From Candidatus Helarchaeota ASGARD archaeon Hel_GB_B (lineage in GTDB: Archaea; Asgardarchaeota; Lokiarchaeia; Helarchaeales; HEL-GB-B): 15,906 bases of DNA. The stretch spans positions 1-15,906 of the forward strand of contig SUPR01000081.1 of the NCBI GenBank assembly GCA_005191425.1, written 5' to 3'. The position numbers and the translations under genes were made by a program. The notes under the pieces are model-generated. The model made no database searches and was not told where the DNA came from. It saw only the letters and a program-made list of their open reading frames with translations. Below, one piece after another: positions 1 to 7,609 of this stretch (within the stretch, counting starts at the first letter, position 1; every line of letters begins with the position of its first letter).

Positions 1-1593
1 CATTCAATGTTTGTTACTGGATTTATGAGCGGATTAGGGAGTAGAAATCTATACAATGCTGGATCGGTCGATAATAACAACTTATTCGTAGCACAGCATT
101 TTCTTTTTGGTAATTCAATAGTGATGCCAATACCTGATTTACCAAATACTGATTTGCTCATAATAATTGGGTCAAATCCAGCTGTGACCAATTTAAGTCT
201 CGTTACTTGCGCTAATGTGATTAAAGTTCTTAAAGGAAATAAAAATAAAGGCGGTGAGATTTATGTTATCGATCCAAGAAGGAATGAAACAGCTAAAATG
301 TTTGCAAAAGATGACGAATATTATATTCTAATTTATCCAAATACTGTTATTCTTTTGTTATTTTCAATGATTAACATTATTCTTAAAGAGGAATTAGAAG
401 ATAAAGAATTTCTTAAAAAGAATACAGTAGGATATGAAAAGTTAAAAGAGTTATTTGGTGGATTTACTCCTGAAATTGTAGAGAAATTTTGTAGAATACC
501 TGCAGATAAAATATATAAACTTACTCATAAGTTTGTAAAAGTCCGAAAATCTGTTATATATGGGCGGTTAGGTATATGTTTATCTGAATTTTCGACTTTA
601 AACGCTTGGGCTGTTTATACACTAAACATAATTGCAGGGAAATTGGATCGACCTGGTGGACTGATTTTCGGGTATAATGTAATAAATATTGCAAAACTAG
701 GTAAATTAATCGGAATTGGCGGATTTAATAGATATAGAAGCCGGGTTGGGAATTATCTTGATGTAATGGGCACTTTTCCAGTCGGGTCTTTGGCTCGAGA
801 AATAATGTTTCCAATAAATTCTATTAAAGCTTTAATAATTTCAGCGGATAATCCCGTACTATCTGCCCCAAATTCTAATGAATTTGAAATGGCTTTAAAA
901 AAATTAGATTTATGTGTTGTATTAGATTTTTATACTAATGAAACAGCTTTAATAGCTGCTGATTATATTCTACCTGTAAATACACCACTTGAAAATTCTA
1001 ATTATTCTATATTTTCTCTAAATTATCATATTTTTCCTCATATTGATTATACTCCGCCAATAGTGATTTCAGAAAAATATGGCCCCAAACCTGAGTGGGA
1101 AATTTTACTCGCTTTGACAAGATTATTGAGATTAAAATTCATGAACAATAACGCATTTAATTTAATTTTAAAATTTTTTCAATTTATTAATAAGAAATTT
1201 GACCTTGAAATTATAGTTAGAATTTTTCTTTTTTTAGGACAAATATTTGAAAAAAGATTTCCATATTTATCAAAAAATGCATTAACATTCAGAAAACTTA
1301 AGAAAAATAAATTTATTATCGCAAGGAAAAATGAGTATAATGTAATTAAAAAGTATTTACAGACTAAAAATAAAAAGATTAATTTTTTAAATTCCCAAAT
1401 TATTGAGCAAATTAATCTATGTTATGATTTTTTGAAAAAAATAGATAAAGAAGGGAAAAACAATGAATTTGTTTTAATTGGAGGCAGAATGACAAAATCT
1501 ATGAATTCTTGGATGCATAATGTTGAATTTTTATGTGAAAAAAAAAAACAAATACCAAAATTACTAATCAATTCTAATGATGCAAAAAATTGA
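1..1593 (+). CDS. Molybdopterin (bis-PGD)-dependent oxidoreductase, main part; 5'-partial and separated from its C-terminal domain by a frameshift
   Basis: The frame is open to base 1 (CAT TCA ATG), so the ATG at 7 is probably internal. DMSO-reductase-superfamily motifs are present: DLLIIIGSNPAVT, GGEIYVIDPRRNETA, GKLDRPGG, LDLCVVLDFYTNETA..ADYILP, PKPEWEI, SMNSWMHN. The ORF stops in the middle of the molydopterin dinucleotide-binding domain (LLINSNDAKN*). No TAT signal or Fe-S motif lies inside the window. Confidence 0.9.
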   Translation, partial: HSMFVTGFMSGLGSRNLYNAGSVDNNNLFVAQHFLFGNSIVMPIPDLPNTDLLIIIGSNPAVTNLSLVTCANVIKVLKGNKNKGGEIYVIDPRRNETAKMFAKDDEYYILIYPNTVILLLFSMINIILKEELEDKEFLKKNTVGYEKLKELFGGFTPEIVEKFCRIPADKIYKLTHKFVKVRKSVIYGRLGICLSEFSTLNAWAVYTLNIIAGKLDRPGGLIFGYNVINIAKLGKLIGIGGFNRYRSRVGNYLDVMGTFPVGSLAREIMFPINSIKALIISADNPVLSAPNSNEFEMALKKLDLCVVLDFYTNETALIAADYILPVNTPLENSNYSIFSLNYHIFPHIDYTPPIVISEKYGPKPEWEILLALTRLLRLKFMNNNAFNLILKFFQFINKKFDLEIIVRIFLFLGQIFEKRFPYLSKNALTFRKLKKNKFIIARKNEYNVIKKYLQTKNKKINFLNSQIIEQINLCYDFLKKIDKEGKNNEFVLIGGRMTKSMNSWMHNVEFLCEKKKQIPKLLINSNDAKN

Positions 1594-1856
1594 ATTTAAG
1601 AGATGATGATCTAATAAAAATTAAAAACACTTTCGGATCAATTATTGTCCCAATAAAACTTTCTGAAGATATAATGCAAGGTGTATTATTTTATCCACAT
1701 GGGTGGGGCCATAGAAATCCAAAATTATCGGTCGCTGATAGGCATCCCGGAGAGAATGTTAACAAATTAACTGATTCCCATAAATTAGAAAAATTATCTG
1801 GAATTCCATTAATGAATGGATACAAGGTAGAATTGGAAAAAATAAGAAAATATTAA
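1590..1856 (+). CDS. C-terminal molydopterin dinucleotide-binding domain fragment of the upstream oxidoreductase (-1 frame); probably not an independent gene
   Basis: LNLRDDDLIKIKNTFGSIIVPIKLSEDIMQGVLFYPHGWGH...NVNKLT directly continues the Molydop_binding pattern (inP.DA..lgl.dgd.v.v....G.i...v......GV...PHGWG) that the upstream ORF begins. Confidence 0.85.
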   Translation: MNLRDDDLIKIKNTFGSIIVPIKLSEDIMQGVLFYPHGWGHRNPKLSVADRHPGENVNKLTDSHKLEKLSGIPLMNGYKVELEKIRKY

Positions 1857-2304: not shown

Positions 2305-3315
2305 CTAATTATTAATTTCTATTTTCTTGAAATACTTACAATCGTCAACTAACTCTATTTTTGTAATTAATTTATCGATATGGCAAATTTTCAAAAATTT
2401 CCATTCAACCTTTCCTATTTGCCATTTACCAGCTTTATTATTACCTAAATTGATCTTAACAACTAAACCATTTAAGAGTTTCTTATATTTCATACAAGAA
2501 CAAAAATTTCCTAATGAATAAACTATCAACTTCTTTTCACTATCTAATTTATAGGTTGTTATTGGCTGTGGCACATGGGGATGAGTACCAATAATCAAGT
2601 CCCACTTTTTAAGTATTTTTTTCCCCAGTTCAATCTGTCTAGGATTTGGATATAATTGCATTTCATATCCCCAATGAGGGCATAAAATATTAAATTTATT
2701 ATCGTAAACATTAAATTGGTCTATATCTTTTAAATAAGAAATATAATTACAAGGTTGATTTGACCAATTTGAAACATTTGTTATATTAACTTGTTCATTT
2801 AATAAGAATGATGGTTGATCTCTTCTTCCTATTGTAATAAACCCATTCTCCTTTAATAATTCATAGGATTTATTGAATTCAGTCCATCCAAAATCACCTG
2901 AATGATTGTTCGCGCAAGTAAGAATAAATTTATTAGGTGGGAATAGCTTTTTTAGGTCATCAATAATTTTTTCAGAGTGATCTTGTGCAAAAAATACTTT
3001 TTTTCCTTTACTTATTGTCCCTTCAAAATTTCCTATTAAATAATCAACATTAAGAAAATCAATTAAATTTCTATCATATGTTATACTTCTTTTACCCATT
3101 CGCATTATATCTCCAATGAATCCCAGCTTTATTTTTATTGAAATCTTGTTTAATTCTATCTTTTGAGGAATAAATTTGGTAATATTGCTGAATCTTCGTG
3201 ATGGTCCAAAAAGAAAATTTTTGATCCAAATTATATCTTCTTTTAAATTATAGGGTGTTGAAAACCTTTTACGCGGTATATCTTGCGCCCAATTTTCATT
3301 TCCATTACTTGACAT
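2305..3315 (-). CDS. CapA family (PGA_cap) metallophosphoesterase-fold protein
   Basis: Motifs in the expected order: GFIGDIM, GNFEG, ANNHSGDFG, PHWGYE, IGTHPHVPQ, YSLGNF. No N-terminal hydrophobic anchor seen. Confidence 0.88.
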   Translation of the reverse strand: MSSNGNENWAQDIPRKRFSTPYNLKEDIIWIKNFLFGPSRRFSNITKFIPQKIELNKISIKIKLGFIGDIMRMGKRSITYDRNLIDFLNVDYLIGNFEGTISKGKKVFFAQDHSEKIIDDLKKLFPPNKFILTCANNHSGDFGWTEFNKSYELLKENGFITIGRRDQPSFLLNEQVNITNVSNWSNQPCNYISYLKDIDQFNVYDNKFNILCPHWGYEMQLYPNPRQIELGKKILKKWDLIIGTHPHVPQPITTYKLDSEKKLIVYSLGNFCSCMKYKKLLNGLVVKINLGNNKAGKWQIGKVEWKFLKICHIDKLITKIELVDDCKYFKKIEINN

Positions 3316-3529
3316 ATTTTAGCACTTTTTTAATTCAAGCAATACAATCGAATAAATTTAATAAAAAGATAAAAAATTTATCTATAAAAAACGATTAAAA
3401 ATTTAAATTTCTTTTTAACTTTAATGTAGGCAAAAATGTAAATTAAAATAATAACATTTTATTTTTTTTAAAAGCAGGTCTAATTAAAATAGGAATTTCT
3501 AAAGATAGTATAAAATAGGTATGGTCTAA

Positions 3530-4615
3530 ATGAAAAAAATGTATTATTATTTTCTAATTTTATTATTATCAATTATTTATATAAATTTAATTATAAATCA
3601 ATCAGTTTCGCATAGTTCATTTAATTCCTTATCTCAATTTTCAGTATCAGGTAAAATAAATAGTGGGATTTTTAACTTATATGTAGAAGAAAAAGATAAA
3701 ATAGACATCCCAAATATTTACAATTATTCTTACACATGCAATAAAACAATTATAAATGAAATTAACCAAACAATGAATTTATCTGCAATAAATATTAAAA
3801 TTACAAATTTACAAGACCCACCATATTCGATAATAATTAACAGAAATACGACTAATTCTATATTTGCTGTTAATGAGCAAGAACTCAATGCTAAAAAGCC
3901 CCAATTAGCCCAATATTTCAAAATTGATAACTTTTCTTTAATTCAAACAATTGGTGTCTATTTAAATTATACAGTTTCAGGTTTTTTTCCCAGTCCAAAA
4001 GTCAGTATTGATATTTATAATGCTTCGAACTTTAATGTCGGACCAATTAATGTAAAAAATCATACAGCGAATTTGGGGTTTGGAAATCATATTGAATGGA
4101 TTAAAATACCTATCAATGAATATTTAGGAAAAGGTGAATATTATGCTATATTTAATAGCTGGGTCATAGGTTTAGGTAAAATGAATAATAATAGTTGGCA
4201 AATAAATAAATATAATAATAAATCATTCGATAAAGGGCCAAGTTTATTTCAAAATGCATCCGGTTGGTTCCCTATTCAAAATGATTCCCTTAATGATTTT
4301 TTAATGTATATTAACCTAACTCATTTTGATACTCCCTATGAAGTAAATCTTTCAGTATTTTTGGATAATGAAAAAATAGAGTTGAATCATAAGAGTGATT
4401 ATTCTGTAAAATCTTTAACTTTTGGAAAACCTATTTGGGATAGCGAAATCCTTTATTATTTAGATGCGGTTCCCGACCACGATATTATTATTTCTATAAA
4501 AACAAACAGGTCAGATACTATTGCCTCAATCACAATAGGGGGACGTTATTTCTATTTGGAACCTGCAAATGGTACTTTTTCAGTAAATCATATTTCTAAT
4601 AAATTTGGATATTGA
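3530..4615 (+). CDS. Secreted/surface glycoprotein ectodomain; probable N-terminal half of a receptor-like membrane protein continued in 4605..5870
   Basis: N-terminal MKK followed by a hydrophobic stretch (signal peptide or anchor). Beta-rich and Asn-rich, with at least 15 N-x-S/T sequons and no C-terminal anchor. Overlaps the next ORF by 11 nt. Confidence 0.7.
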   Translation: MKKMYYYFLILLLSIIYINLIINQSVSHSSFNSLSQFSVSGKINSGIFNLYVEEKDKIDIPNIYNYSYTCNKTIINEINQTMNLSAINIKITNLQDPPYSIIINRNTTNSIFAVNEQELNAKKPQLAQYFKIDNFSLIQTIGVYLNYTVSGFFPSPKVSIDIYNASNFNVGPINVKNHTANLGFGNHIEWIKIPINEYLGKGEYYAIFNSWVIGLGKMNNNSWQINKYNNKSFDKGPSLFQNASGWFPIQNDSLNDFLMYINLTHFDTPYEVNLSVFLDNEKIELNHKSDYSVKSLTFGKPIWDSEILYYLDAVPDHDIIISIKTNRSDTIASITIGGRYFYLEPANGTFSVNHISNKFGY

Positions 4616-5870
4616 TTATAAAAAAATCAACTCTTCGTCAACTTTAAAAGTGTTCTTTATGCATCCTTATGACTGGTCAATTAAAAAACTTTATGATAAA
4701 AAATTTGGAAACGAAATTTACGAATATGGTATATATTACAGTTATATATATGGCGATCGTGGAAAAGCAATTTGGTATGAGGAAGGTGGTGATGGAACTG
4801 AAGAATTTAATTATGAAGCTATATTTAATTCACCTAATTATATATCCAATACTAAACTTTGGAAAAAATCAATATATTCAAGTCAGTATCAATCAGCCTT
4901 CAATGTTTATATTGGTGATGCTTTTAAAATTCAAGCCCAAATTAAAAATTCTGAAGGTGAATCTATCAAAAATGGTAAATGTAGTTTTAATTTATACAGT
5001 CCAAGTGGTAATAATATTTTTTCAAGTAATTCAACTAATTATAATGGAATTATAGAGTCAAATGATGTGATTACAAATGGCTGGACTCCTGGAATTTATT
5101 CAATGGTAATATATTGGAGTAATGGGGAAGAATTTGGTATTATAATTTATTATATATCAGTATCTCTATCACCATGGATTTATACTATAATCGTTGCAGT
5201 GATAGTTGGCATATCTATTGCGTTATCCTTAACTTATATAAAAAAGAAACTCCAAGAAAGAAATTGGGTGAAATCTATACATTATCTATTAGTTTTAAAT
5301 AAAAAGGGAGGTACTCCCATGTATAGTTATTCTTTTGGGGCAATTATTAAAGATTCAGCATTAATATCCGGAATGATTTCTGCAATCTCTGATTTTGTAA
5401 AAGATACCATTGGAAGCAAAAAAATGTTACGCGTCATTGACCAAGAGGATAAAAAAGTTATTTTATCACACGGAAAATTCTCAACAATTGCAATACTAGG
5501 CGATAAGAACCTACCAATTATCCATACTCGGTCTGAAAAATTTCTGAACGATTTCGAAGAAAAATATGCTGATAAAATTACCAAATGGACTGGCGATATG
5601 AGTGTATTTAAGGGAGTAAATAAAATTATAGAAAAATATTTCCCCATAAGCATGGAAGATAAATTAATTAATAAACTTGGATATGAATTAGAGACATTAA
5701 ATGAAAGAATTCAAACAGCCACAAACCCGGAAGAAATAGCTAAAATATTGAATGAAGTAACTACATTAACTGATCAATATCAAGATTTAATAATTAAGAA
5801 TTACAATTCATTATTAATTGAAATAATGAAGGAAGCAAACAAAAAATTAAAATCAAAAAATGAAAAATGA
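4605..5870 (+). CDS. Single-pass membrane protein with cytoplasmic longin-like domain and helical tail; probable C-terminal half of the split gene
   Basis: No signal peptide. An Ig-like beta region (PGIYSMVIYW) precedes one TM helix (WIYTIIVAVIVGISIALSLTYI, ~5175-5240) and a basic KKK stop-transfer. The following domain (~5265-5645) aligns by eye with the C-terminus of the MFS protein at 8656-9045. A ~75 aa helical tail ends the ORF. Confidence 0.75.
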   Translation: MDIDYKKINSSSTLKVFFMHPYDWSIKKLYDKKFGNEIYEYGIYYSYIYGDRGKAIWYEEGGDGTEEFNYEAIFNSPNYISNTKLWKKSIYSSQYQSAFNVYIGDAFKIQAQIKNSEGESIKNGKCSFNLYSPSGNNIFSSNSTNYNGIIESNDVITNGWTPGIYSMVIYWSNGEEFGIIIYYISVSLSPWIYTIIVAVIVGISIALSLTYIKKKLQERNWVKSIHYLLVLNKKGGTPMYSYSFGAIIKDSALISGMISAISDFVKDTIGSKKMLRVIDQEDKKVILSHGKFSTIAILGDKNLPIIHTRSEKFLNDFEEKYADKITKWTGDMSVFKGVNKIIEKYFPISMEDKLINKLGYELETLNERIQTATNPEEIAKILNEVTTLTDQYQDLIIKNYNSLLIEIMKEANKKLKSKNEK

Positions 5871-5880
5871 AAAATGAAAA
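5860..5880 (+). repeat. Tandem 7-mer ATGAAAA x3 at the stop/start junction
   Basis: Read directly: ATGAAAA at 5860-5866, 5867-5873 and 5874-5880. Confidence 0.85.
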
Positions 5881-6637
5881 AATAAGTCAAGAACATATTG
5901 CAGTATTTGCAGCTCATCCTGATGATGAAGGGTCTGTTTGGGGGACATTACAAAAATATTATGAATTTGGGTCAAAAATATCCTTAATTTGGATGACCTG
6001 TGGTGATAAATTCATAGCTTCTGTAAAAAAATATGTTAATTATTTACCACTTTTGATAAAATCCTTTTATTCAAAAAAAATTCAAGAAAAATTATCAATT
6101 AGAATATCCGAAATCCGTAAAAAAGAAGCAATTATGGTAGCTAATTTGATTAATGCCACACCATATTTCCTTGAATTTAAAGATACAGAAATTCCTTCCT
6201 TTAAAGATAAAATTGCCTTAAAAAAAATTGTCGGACTTATTAGAAAAATCAAACCCACTATTATACTTACTCATTGGAACAATGAGCTTCACAAAGATCA
6301 TAAAAACACGTCAAATCTTATAACTAAATCATATTTTCTTTCGGATAATCCTAATATTATCACAGACCACGCTCCTTACAAGCCTAGAATATTGGCTTTT
6401 TGGGACGAACGAGGAAAAAATTTTAAGCCTAATTTCTTTCTAAATGTATCTGATCAAATTTCTTATATCAAGAAATGGGGAAAATATTACAATTCCCAAT
6501 CTTTTAGAATTGTTGGAAGGTTTGTAAAATTTAGATATAGTATTAATGCGAAAAAAACTCCATATAGTTATGCAGAGGCTTATTATATTTATAATAAAAA
6601 AAGCGGTAAAAGTTTCGGCCAATTCTTTCCTAAATGA
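5867..6637 (+). CDS. PIG-L/LmbE family N-acetylglucosaminyl deacetylase (BshB1-like)
   Basis: AHPDDE metal-binding motif, RKKEA..A, PTIILTHW and HKDH. ATGA overlap with the upstream gene indicates translational coupling. Confidence 0.88.
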   Translation: MKNEKISQEHIAVFAAHPDDEGSVWGTLQKYYEFGSKISLIWMTCGDKFIASVKKYVNYLPLLIKSFYSKKIQEKLSIRISEIRKKEAIMVANLINATPYFLEFKDTEIPSFKDKIALKKIVGLIRKIKPTIILTHWNNELHKDHKNTSNLITKSYFLSDNPNIITDHAPYKPRILAFWDERGKNFKPNFFLNVSDQISYIKKWGKYYNSQSFRIVGRFVKFRYSINAKKTPYSYAEAYYIYNKKSGKSFGQFFPK

Positions 6638-6681
6638 GTTTTTATCGTAGGCAATAAAATTTACATCATTTTAACATATGT

Positions 6682-7398
6682 TCACACATTCTTATAGATT
6701 ATTGAAAAACCAATACCCATTAATATTGCACCTAAAGACTCTGCAATCGGATTAAAATAATGCAATAATATACCTGGAATATTTTGTACAAAAATATATG
6801 ATTCTGGAAGATCACCTATCACACCAAGAAGAAAAAATAGAAATCCAATCGTATTTATTATCCAAGCGATTTTATTTGATAAGTATAACCCTTTTATTGA
6901 AAGATAAAGAAATAATATTATTGGAACTATCGCAACACCAAAAAATAAAATTACAACTATCGTAAAATTCCAGAATGCTTCTGCTGTAAAGTATAATAAA
7001 CAAGAAAAAATACCTTCTAAAGAGGAACTGACAGTAATCAAAAATTTCGTCTTTTTTTCCATAATATATTTCTCAAATACAAAGAAAAAAACCGTAATTC
7101 CAGTCCACGCTATTATATAATAACTTAACCGTAATAATAAATTTATTCCAGTAATTGTAAAATTACTATCTACGATATCATAATAATCATTTATGTAAAA
7201 ATATCTTCTAATTGTTTCTATTAATCTTGCTATTGCAAAAGTAATGCTAAAAATGATAAGACCAAAAATAAATGACCTTCCTTCCGGCTCAATTTTTCTA
7301 TATTTATAAATAAAGTAAACAGCAAAAATACAAAAAATAATTGATACCATTAACCATAAGGTTGGTTCCATTACTGGATCATAGAACCTATTTACCAA
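6682..7398 (-). CDS. Hypothetical integral membrane protein with about 7 TM helices
   Basis: Seven hydrophobic segments separated by short charged loops, with no soluble domain. TTG start preceded by GAGATGGT; the ATG at codon 10 is an alternative start. Confidence 0.75.
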   Translation of the reverse strand: MVNRFYDPVMEPTLWLMVSIIFCIFAVYFIYKYRKIEPEGRSFIFGLIIFSITFAIARLIETIRRYFYINDYYDIVDSNFTITGINLLLRLSYYIIAWTGITVFFFVFEKYIMEKKTKFLITVSSSLEGIFSCLLYFTAEAFWNFTIVVILFFGVAIVPIILFLYLSIKGLYLSNKIAWIINTIGFLFFLLGVIGDLPESYIFVQNIPGILLHYFNPIAESLGAILMGIGFSIIYKNV

Positions 7399-7609
7399 TT
7401 AGACCATCTCTTTTATTAAATTCCAGAATATTTGAGAATTAAGTCCTTTTTTGGTTTGATTTAATAAATTTTAACCTTTCATATTTAAATGATTAAGATC
7501 AAAATTTATTTATTGAGATTTTTTATTTATTAACTTTAAATTTTTTCCTTTTATCATTTATGTATTTATGAAAAAATTATCGATACCAATTAATTTAACT
7601 GTGATAATA

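Follow-up and report, generated by a model that had tools for sequence, protein, structure and literature searches.

Asgard archaea encode dozens of small GTPases together with dozens of longin and roadblock proteins, which raises two questions: which of these proteins pair with each other, and how GTPases without lipid anchors reach the membrane. A locus of the Candidatus Helarchaeota archaeon Hel_GB_B (assembly GCA_005191425.1) bears on both, as its product would present a longin domain at the inner face of the membrane. The locus occupies positions 3530 to 5870 of the forward strand of contig SUPR01000081.1, which at its full length of 15,906 nucleotides is referred to here as the window. 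As judged from the sequence, a single gene is present here that is broken in frame in this assembly and, when intact, encodes a type I surface glycoprotein of ∼780 amino acids. The best-supported reading, which has about an even chance of being correct, describes the product as a glycan-binding or adhesive surface protein with a membrane-tethered longin docking platform. This reading is preferred because of the longin fold of the cytoplasmic domain, the strong conservation of the cytoplasmic module, its recurrence on unrelated membrane proteins, and the fusion of a paralogous longin to an Arf-like GTPase.

The interval comprises 2341 bases, which is no multiple of 3, and contains two open reading frames (ORFs) under translation table 11. 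ORF A (positions 3530 to 4615, + strand, frame 2; 361 amino acids) encodes the first 356 residues of the receptor, after which the reading continues out of frame for 5 codons and ends early with TGA at positions 4613 to 4615. ORF B (positions 4605 to 5870, + strand, frame 0; 421 amino acids) encodes the remaining ectodomain, the transmembrane (TM) helix, the longin domain, and a helical tail. Among 1.84 billion representative proteins, 1135 match at E ≤0.001, and the best of them is the 780-amino-acid orthologue P0003. ORF A shows 44% identity with residues 26 to 353 of this protein and ORF B 60% identity with residues 361 to 778, so that collinearity is kept across the junction of the two ORFs. 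Sixteen further orthologues, and likewise the ORFs at 29 Asgard loci, are each one undivided protein of about 750 to 810 amino acids that begins with a signal-like segment; in about 25 Asgard genomes, the orthologues are uninterrupted ORFs of 760 to 810 amino acids. An initial annotation of the locus had described one type I protein over the whole interval. This description holds for the intact allele and the orthologues and fails in the window, where the frame is broken behind position 4597; it is confirmed only in part because the frameshift had been overlooked.

The membrane-anchored longin domain

The cytoplasmic part of the protein (ORF B residues 211 to 421) was modelled by AlphaFold2 (AF2) with a 126-sequence alignment, at a pLDDT of 94.9 and a pTM of 0.83. 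The model shows the order β-β-α-β-β-β-α-α, followed by three long helices. DSSP assigns strands to model residues 15 to 22, 28 to 33, 67 to 70, 73 to 79, and 83 to 89 and helices to residues 41 to 59, 94 to 116, and 128 to 135, which is the arrangement typical of longin domains, a five-stranded antiparallel sheet in the order β1-β2-α1-β3-β4-β5-α2-α3 that has α1 packed on one side and α2/α3 on the opposite side. According to the model and its structural comparison, the domain covers ORF B residues 224 to 348 (positions 5274 to 5648, + strand). In an exhaustive structural comparison, longin domains rank at the top and align over model residues 14 to 138. Among them are Fuzzy (7q3d_C, Z 12.7), Bet5 (3cue_C, Z 12.2), VAMP7 and AP μ (Z 11.7), Sec22 (Z 11.3), Mon1/Ccz1 (Z 10.4 to 11), SRX (Z 10.1 to 10.4), a Lokiarchaeota structure (8yqg_B, Z 10.4), and AP σ. 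Foldseek returns the same longin families with a probability of 1.00, and the model of P0003 repeats the result with Sec22 (Z 13.6) and VAMP7 (Z 13.3).

Sequence comparison gives a weaker signal, with ≤12% identity to Fuzzy, Mon1-Ccz1, and Bet5/Trs23-type longins. The query has no match above the gathering score to the Pfam longin families (Longin, Sybindin, Sedlin_N, and Intu/Fuz longin), and its profile finds only weak matches among PDB sequences (dynein roadblock, E 0.1; Trs23, E 0.36). Sub-threshold matches to Intu_longin_1, Fuz_longin_1, Sybindin, and Longin (E 1e-4 to 1e-3) are found in 3 to 4 of the 126 homologues and in some paralogues. Because the top whole-domain matches are longins and the homologues carry these sub-threshold longin hits, the modelled domain is assigned to the longin fold and to neither the PAS, the GAF, nor the roadblock fold.

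The domain follows closely on the membrane-spanning part of the protein. The single TM helix (positions 5175 to 5240, + strand; ORF B residues 191 to 212) has a hydropathy of 2.4, is followed by KKK in agreement with the positive-inside rule, and corresponds to helix 548 to 577 of the P0003 model. A conserved juxtamembrane motif, KKKLQERNWVKS (RNW; positions 5241 to 5273, + strand), connects the helix with the longin domain; its residues R70 and W72 are invariant in the orthologue alignment. At the other end of the protein, a putative signal peptide or N-terminal anchor (positions 3530 to 3601, + strand) is recognized by hydropathy and consists of MKK, a hydrophobic stretch, and NQSVSHS. The hydrophobic segment comprises ORF A residues 3 to 27; a similar segment opens all orthologues and forms a helix of residues 2 to 27 in the P0003 model. 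The resulting type I layout, with the N-terminal segment, one TM helix, and the C terminus inside, is the same in all orthologues.

Behind the longin domain, the AF2 model shows a C-terminal three-helix bundle (positions 5652 to 5867, + strand; ORF B residues 350 to 421). Its helices span ORF B residues 350 to 371, 375 to 391, and 393 to 420, equivalent to model residues 140 to 161, 165 to 181, and 183 to 210, with pLDDT values of 96 to 98. The structural matches of this tail are generic (CorA cytosolic domain, C-Ala, and BAG) and, with Z ≤10, fall below the noise level of the tool for helical folds. No match to the Pfam MIT, SNARE, or synaptobrevin profiles is found for the tail. A SNARE identity is rejected in view of the missing profile match, the generic helical matches, and the position of the TM helix before the longin domain. 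The family DUF7809 (PF25100), which matches the tail at E 0.01, was dropped because neither this match nor any other in the genome reaches the cut-off. A predicted homodimer of two copies of the cytoplasmic part scores 0.26 against a mark of 0.42, a result that weighs neither way on binding.

Most elements of this architecture agree with the initial annotation, which had named a single TM helix, an α/β domain of ∼125 amino acids at positions 5265 to 5645, a longin-like fold recognized for this domain by pattern alone, and three tail helices, the peptides of which match the helices of the model. Its suggestion of an MIT-like tail finds no support in the three-helix bundle with its generic matches.

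The many sequons that had been ascribed to the ectodomain are likewise recovered. The ectodomain of 517 amino acids contains 19 N-X-S/T sequons, compared to 9.05 expected (5000 shuffles, p about 4e-4), whereas the cytoplasmic part contains 0. The sequon density of 3.7 per 100 amino acids exceeds the genome-wide value of 0.84. The excess sits in ORF A, with 17 sequons observed and 6.1 expected, and the shuffle comparison shows no enrichment in the membrane-proximal 187 amino acids of the ectodomain. The closest orthologue shows a like pattern (19 sequons compared to 9.03 expected). An excess limited to the extracellular part suggests that the ectodomain is N-glycosylated.

The fold of the ectodomain was taken from a model of the intact orthologue P0003, built with 40 sequences, in which this part is all-β; the mean pLDDT is 85.7, with values >90 across most of residues 40 to 545. 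Its outer domain is predicted to be a sequon-rich, Cwp84-type lectin-like β-sandwich, transferred from the orthologue model to positions 3815 to 4327 (+ strand; ORF A residues about 96 to 266). Residues 96 to 266 of the P0003 model match 4ci7_A with Z 14.6 and an rmsd of 3.1 over 150 aligned residues. Leads from the ESM Atlas for this domain point to PF18560 (Lectin_like), while the window protein itself has no match to the Pfam family PF18560 at E ≤0.1. The best structural match, the lectin-like domain (PF18560) of Cwp84, belongs to an S-layer-associated protease of Clostridioides difficile. Cwp84 differs in its protease domain, which is absent here, and carbohydrate binding is putative for both proteins.

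A middle all-β region (positions 4328 to 4826, + strand) spans the frameshift and corresponds to residues 267 to 432 of the P0003 model (pLDDT >85), where no domain-level structural match is found. It is followed by a predicted membrane-proximal macroglobulin (MG)/Ig-like β-sandwich (positions 4827 to 5171, + strand; ORF B residues about 75 to 189). Here, residues 433 to 547 of the P0003 model match the MG domains of C5, C3, and α2-macroglobulin with Z 11.5 to 12.4 and an rmsd of about 2.0 over ∼100 aligned residues, and Foldseek aligns the domain with 2p9r at a TMt of 0.73 to 0.75. With the exception of one MG domain, a Foldseek search with the whole 780-amino-acid model returns only low-TM matches to phage baseplate and complement multi-β-sandwich proteins.

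Conservation differs strongly between the two sides of the membrane. Mean pairwise identity among 38 full-length orthologues amounts to 30% in the lectin-like domain, 34% in the middle region, and 38% in the MG-like domain of the ectodomain, compared to 59% in the longin domain, the highest value of the protein, and 42% in the helical tail. The longin helix α1 is highly conserved in the alignments. The identity of 59% in the longin domain against 30 to 38% in the ectodomain, the invariant arginine and tryptophan of the juxtamembrane motif, and the conserved α1 argue for a conserved intracellular partner.

Across 301 sampled genomes of the phylum, full-length matches (E ≤1e-93) are open frames of ∼715 to 813 amino acids, with 1 to 2 per genome, and most belong to one family of the same class. 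The 29 related loci, found in a search made with orthologues only, stem from metagenome-assembled genomes (MAGs) of Promethearchaeota, Helarchaeota, Hodarchaeota, Hermodarchaeota, Odinarchaeota, and Sigynarchaeum and from one MAG labelled "Bathyarchaeota." The Helarchaeota MAG LW55_61 contains two orthologues in tandem (positions 2671 to 7566 of that locus; 821 and 799 amino acids) and therefore a recent duplication. A shape search of the ESM Atlas gives domains like the cytoplasmic module at a TM score of 0.55 to 0.58, which serve as leads only. Their carriers are DUF11/CARDB surface proteins of Thermoplasmatota as well as bacterial OmpA-family and SH3_3 proteins. Since these look-alikes occur outside the Asgard archaea, proteins in which a TM helix joins a surface domain to a tail of the longin or roadblock type may not be peculiar to this group.

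The interrupted reading frame

Frame 0 is open only from about position 4587, and ORF A and ORF B overlap by 11 nucleotides, with TTG as a possible start of ORF B. The site of the frameshift becomes apparent by comparison with Logan contigs from four metagenome runs (X1 to X4), each of which covers most of the stretch. The contigs of X1, X2, and X4, which originate from three studies of hydrothermal vent samples, contain an inserted AC behind position 4597 in addition to a T>C exchange at position 4584. The contig of X3 (marine sediment, depth 4.3) is without AC, like the window. Addition of AC leads to one ORF of 780 codons, which reads ...FSANHISTINLDIDYKK... and is colinear with ...FFANSSITRWTVDYKK... 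of P0003. Because the AC of the other contigs restores this single ORF, the window carries a 2-bp deletion, with the two bases absent between positions 4597 and 4598 (+ strand) relative to the other strains. One uninterrupted reading frame is thus missing in the window but present in three other metagenome assemblies and in the orthologues.

The frame-broken allele of this assembly is probably inactive. The deletion may exist as such in one population, with loss of the gene's activity, or it may be an error common to the source sample. The former case, in which the window copy is a pseudogene or dead allele and no functional receptor is made, falls little short of an even chance. The window and the independently assembled X3 contig both lack AC, and ORF B alone has no signal peptide of its own. 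A second, closely related gene copy is located on contig C137 of this genome, where the end of the contig truncates it, and could substitute for the window copy. Two further genes of the window also look interrupted, one by a TGA at positions 10015 to 10017 and the other, for a molybdopterin oxidoreductase, by a split at position 1590. Three interrupted genes in 16 kb, however, would equally fit consensus errors of a low-coverage MAG, and both reading frames of the receptor gene are otherwise undamaged. The depth of X3 is just 4.3, and this contig does not count as independent because X3 may be the sample from which the MAG came. No RNA dataset is listed among those that cover this stretch.

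Partners and competing readings of the longin module

In the preferred reading of the intact protein, that of a docking platform, the fast-evolving ectodomain would bind something extracellular, with glycans or adjacent cells as the most plausible targets. On the inner side, the longin domain, tethered to the membrane and strongly conserved, would retain a partner from the cytoplasm at the plasma membrane. This partner would most likely be a second longin protein, a roadblock protein, or an Arf-like GTPase with a fused longin as encoded in the genome, and pairing would take place via the usual longin α1/β-edge. Docking of this kind would resemble that of the Rags on Ragulator or of SRX with SR-β. 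The function proposed for the longin-tailed receptor draws only on the predicted fold and on the family context.

The genome (3.54 Mb, GC 28%) contains 45 longin-family ORFs when searched with a domain profile. About nine or ten of them are membrane anchored, with a TM helix directly before the domain: the gene described here, the copy on C137, three single-pass giants of 1500 to 1700 amino acids, and several multi-pass proteins. The giants and the multi-pass proteins likewise bear the longin at the C terminus, which speaks for a modular docking role. The remaining ORFs include soluble ones. One paralogue (C131:21456-22346, 296 amino acids) combines in a single chain a longin domain of this family at residues 4 to 127 with an Arf-like GTPase domain (Pfam Arf, E 8e-17). 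This longin is 28% identical with that of the receptor over the whole domain (E 6e-10). The fusion may be a partner of the membrane-anchored longins or serve as a Rosetta-stone link to them and represents, at the level of the family, the sole positive hint of a GTPase link. Another longin paralogue carries an NPRL3-type helix-turn-helix domain.

Two further members of the family stand out by their position. At C56:45909-47221, a Ras-family GTPase gene is followed at a distance of 51 nucleotides by the gene of a 257-amino-acid protein with an N-terminal longin of the same family and a hydrophobic segment, a possible GTPase-longin pair. Within the window itself, an MFS-like multi-pass gene (positions 8653 to 10266, − strand) carries the same longin module at its C terminus. 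The gene is interrupted and consists of an 83-amino-acid ORF with a match to MFS_1, an in-frame TGA at positions 10015 to 10017, and a 453-amino-acid ORF (positions 8653 to 10014, − strand), in which residues 316 to 452 match the longin family profile at E 7.5e-38.

The longin domain shares its fold, over the whole domain, with those of Fuzzy-Inturned (CPLANE), Mon1-Ccz1, and Bet5/Trs23 of TRAPP (TRAPPC1/C4). Those longins are soluble parts of multisubunit guanine nucleotide exchange factors (GEFs), in contrast to the domain described here, which sequence and models show covalently tied to the membrane as part of a surface glycoprotein, downstream of its TM helix. In the signal recognition particle (SRP) receptor, the SRX longin of SR-α, one of the structural matches named above, pairs with the membrane-anchored Arf-like GTPase SR-β. 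The polarity is reversed, since the SR GTPase bears the TM segment and its longin is soluble, whereas here the longin bears the TM helix; no SRP-type function is implied by the likeness. A like concept is found in Ragulator (LAMTOR1 to LAMTOR5), in which membrane-anchored modules of the roadblock/longin superfamily hold the roadblock-bearing Rag GTPases, and LAMTOR chains match the cytoplasmic model in Foldseek at E about 1e-3. Ragulator differs in its roadblock domains, the lipid-modified LAMTOR1 anchor, the lysosomal location, and the lack of an ectodomain. The longin SNAREs Sec22, VAMP7, and Ykt6 are likewise membrane anchored, with a longin followed by a helical region. They show an N-terminal longin, a SNARE motif, and a C-terminal TM segment without an ectodomain, contrary to the order found here, in which the TM helix precedes the longin.

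Among the Asgard archaea, the ∼45 longin-family ORFs of this genome fit a known expansion of the same domain superfamily, to which the matching Lokiarchaeota Roadblock-Longin structure 8yqg belongs. Lokiarchaeum possesses 41 longin domains, some of which are fused to GTPases (PMC4917890), and neither CAAX motifs nor prenyltransferases (PMC4917890, Table 1). The Roadblock/LC7 superfamily comprises 130 asCOGs, the domains of which have been shuffled extensively (bioRxiv 10.1101/2020.10.19.343400). Asgard longins and roadblock proteins are also available as published structures and models, and dimers of longins and roadblocks are described as GTPase platforms (PMC10933270). The Asgard longins described in these papers are soluble or fused to GTPases, TRAPPC3, two-component domains, or NPRL2-like tails (PMC4917890, PMC10933270, bioRxiv 10.1101/2020.10.19.343400). 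In the literature covered, which does not include Klinger et al. 2016 (MBE), no glycosylated surface protein was found described in which a longin follows the TM helix.

How far the docking platform extends toward a GTPase switch is a separate matter. Direct coupling of a receptor to a small GTPase, as the initial annotation had proposed, has about one chance in three, and true transmembrane signalling, in which an outside ligand changes the docking inside, is less likely still. The most far-reaching version, a prokaryotic receptor-to-GTPase device, is unlikely. Here, a glycan- or contact-sensing ectodomain would control the tethered longin, which would recruit longin-fused Arf-like GTPases or act as a GEF or GTPase-activating protein (GAP). 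If true, such a device would supply the membrane anchor that is missing from Asgard GTPases without lipid modification and would be a forerunner of membrane docking of the SR, Ragulator, or TRAPP type.

Several observations weigh against the docking platform and its coupling to a GTPase. The 15.9-kb contig contains no GTPase, roadblock, or other signalling gene, and the neighbours in the window, including a PIG-L gene, are all absent from the surroundings of the 29 related loci. Only 5 of these 29 loci have a Ras-family gene at a distance of up to 6 kb, which is about the chance rate. Among the 45 longin-family ORFs of the genome, which also encodes 42 Ras-superfamily proteins, 5 have a Ras-family gene within 2 kb, and against a background of 6.1% this is not an enrichment. 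The absent enrichment agrees with a published remark on MK-D1, in which GTPase genes generally do not share an operon with genes for roadblock or longin proteins (PMC10933270). In the alignments, no arginine of the FLCN/NPRL2 GAP type is conspicuous for its conservation. A shared fold is also no proof of a shared function, as longins act in SNARE regulation and as coat adaptors as well. The folds of the ectodomain were modelled on P0003 and placed on the window by alignment with this 44% identical protein, and the allele is frameshifted, so that the gene product may be without a role in this strain.

Somewhat doubtful, though to be taken seriously, is a purely structural or adhesive role as an S-layer-associated or cell-cell adhesion glycoprotein. 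In this case, the longin tail would position, sort, or cluster the protein without any GTPase, for instance, through association with itself or with adaptor, ESCRT, or cytoskeletal proteins. The ectodomain combines a lectin-like domain, the best match of which, Cwp84, is S-layer associated, with Ig/MG-like domains of a kind typical for adhesins and S-layer proteins. The heavy decoration with sequons and a gene context that links no GTPase point in the same direction. Eukaryotic longins are also able to bind adaptors instead of GTPases, as VAMP7 does with AP-3 or Hrb (matches 4afi and 2vx8). Against a plain adhesin stand the longin domain, which is about twice as conserved as the ectodomain, the longin-Arf fusion that this genome encodes within the same family, and the presence of the module on transporter-like multi-pass proteins, which are no adhesins.

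It is very improbable that the cytoplasmic domain is instead a PAS/GAF-like small-molecule sensor or a roadblock domain of the MglB type. The core is common to longin, roadblock, and PAS/GAF domains, roadblock chains reach Z 9 to 11, and the best profile match, albeit weak, is to dynein roadblock. The roadblock alignments, however, end at model residues 105 to 117, while those of longins reach residue 138 and include α3, and no PAS or GAF chain, which would have contradicted the longin assignment, is found among the top 50 matches. A roadblock/LC7 identity is rejected on account of the topology, with only helical turns of 4 to 6 residues before β1 and two helices after β5. Least probable of all, and rejected, are two genes by design, namely, a secreted lectin-like glycoprotein (ORF A) and a membrane protein (ORF B), or one product of programmed ribosomal frameshifting: the 11-nucleotide overlap and the possible TTG start would allow for it, but the orthologues are all single ORFs, near-identical strains carry the AC-bearing in-frame gene and differ by a plain 2-bp indel, and ORF B would have to export 190 residues without a signal peptide.

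As a docking platform, the longin on the inner face of surface glycoproteins and transporter-like proteins would be a concrete, testable candidate for the membrane anchor of Asgard GTPases. It would likewise be a candidate link from the cell surface to switch machinery of the eukaryotic type. The cytoplasmic module is small (∼210 amino acids), confidently modelled, and well conserved and therefore a practical bait for pull-down experiments in cultured Lokiarchaeia.

Neighbouring genes

Genes for an MFS transporter, an LRR-HEAT protein, a HAD hydrolase, an acyltransferase, and RuBisCO-like proteins recur as neighbours in subsets of the related loci. These look like lineage synteny rather than partners. 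At the start of the window, a molybdopterin oxidoreductase is encoded at positions 1 to 1856 (+ strand) by two overlapping ORFs in different frames. The ORF at positions 1 to 1593 corresponds to the Molybdopterin domain and that at positions 1590 to 1856 to Molydop_binding. This may be a third interrupted gene on the 16-kb contig or a genuine two-part gene.

Directly downstream of the receptor gene follows a gene of the PIG-L family (GlcNAc-PI de-N-acetylase-like; positions 5867 to 6637, + strand), the ATG of which overlaps the TGA of the receptor gene by 4 nucleotides (ATGA). This overlap suggests a translational coupling of the two genes. The junction also contains a short direct repeat at positions 5859 to 5885, ATGAAAA-ATGAAAA-ATGAAAAAA.

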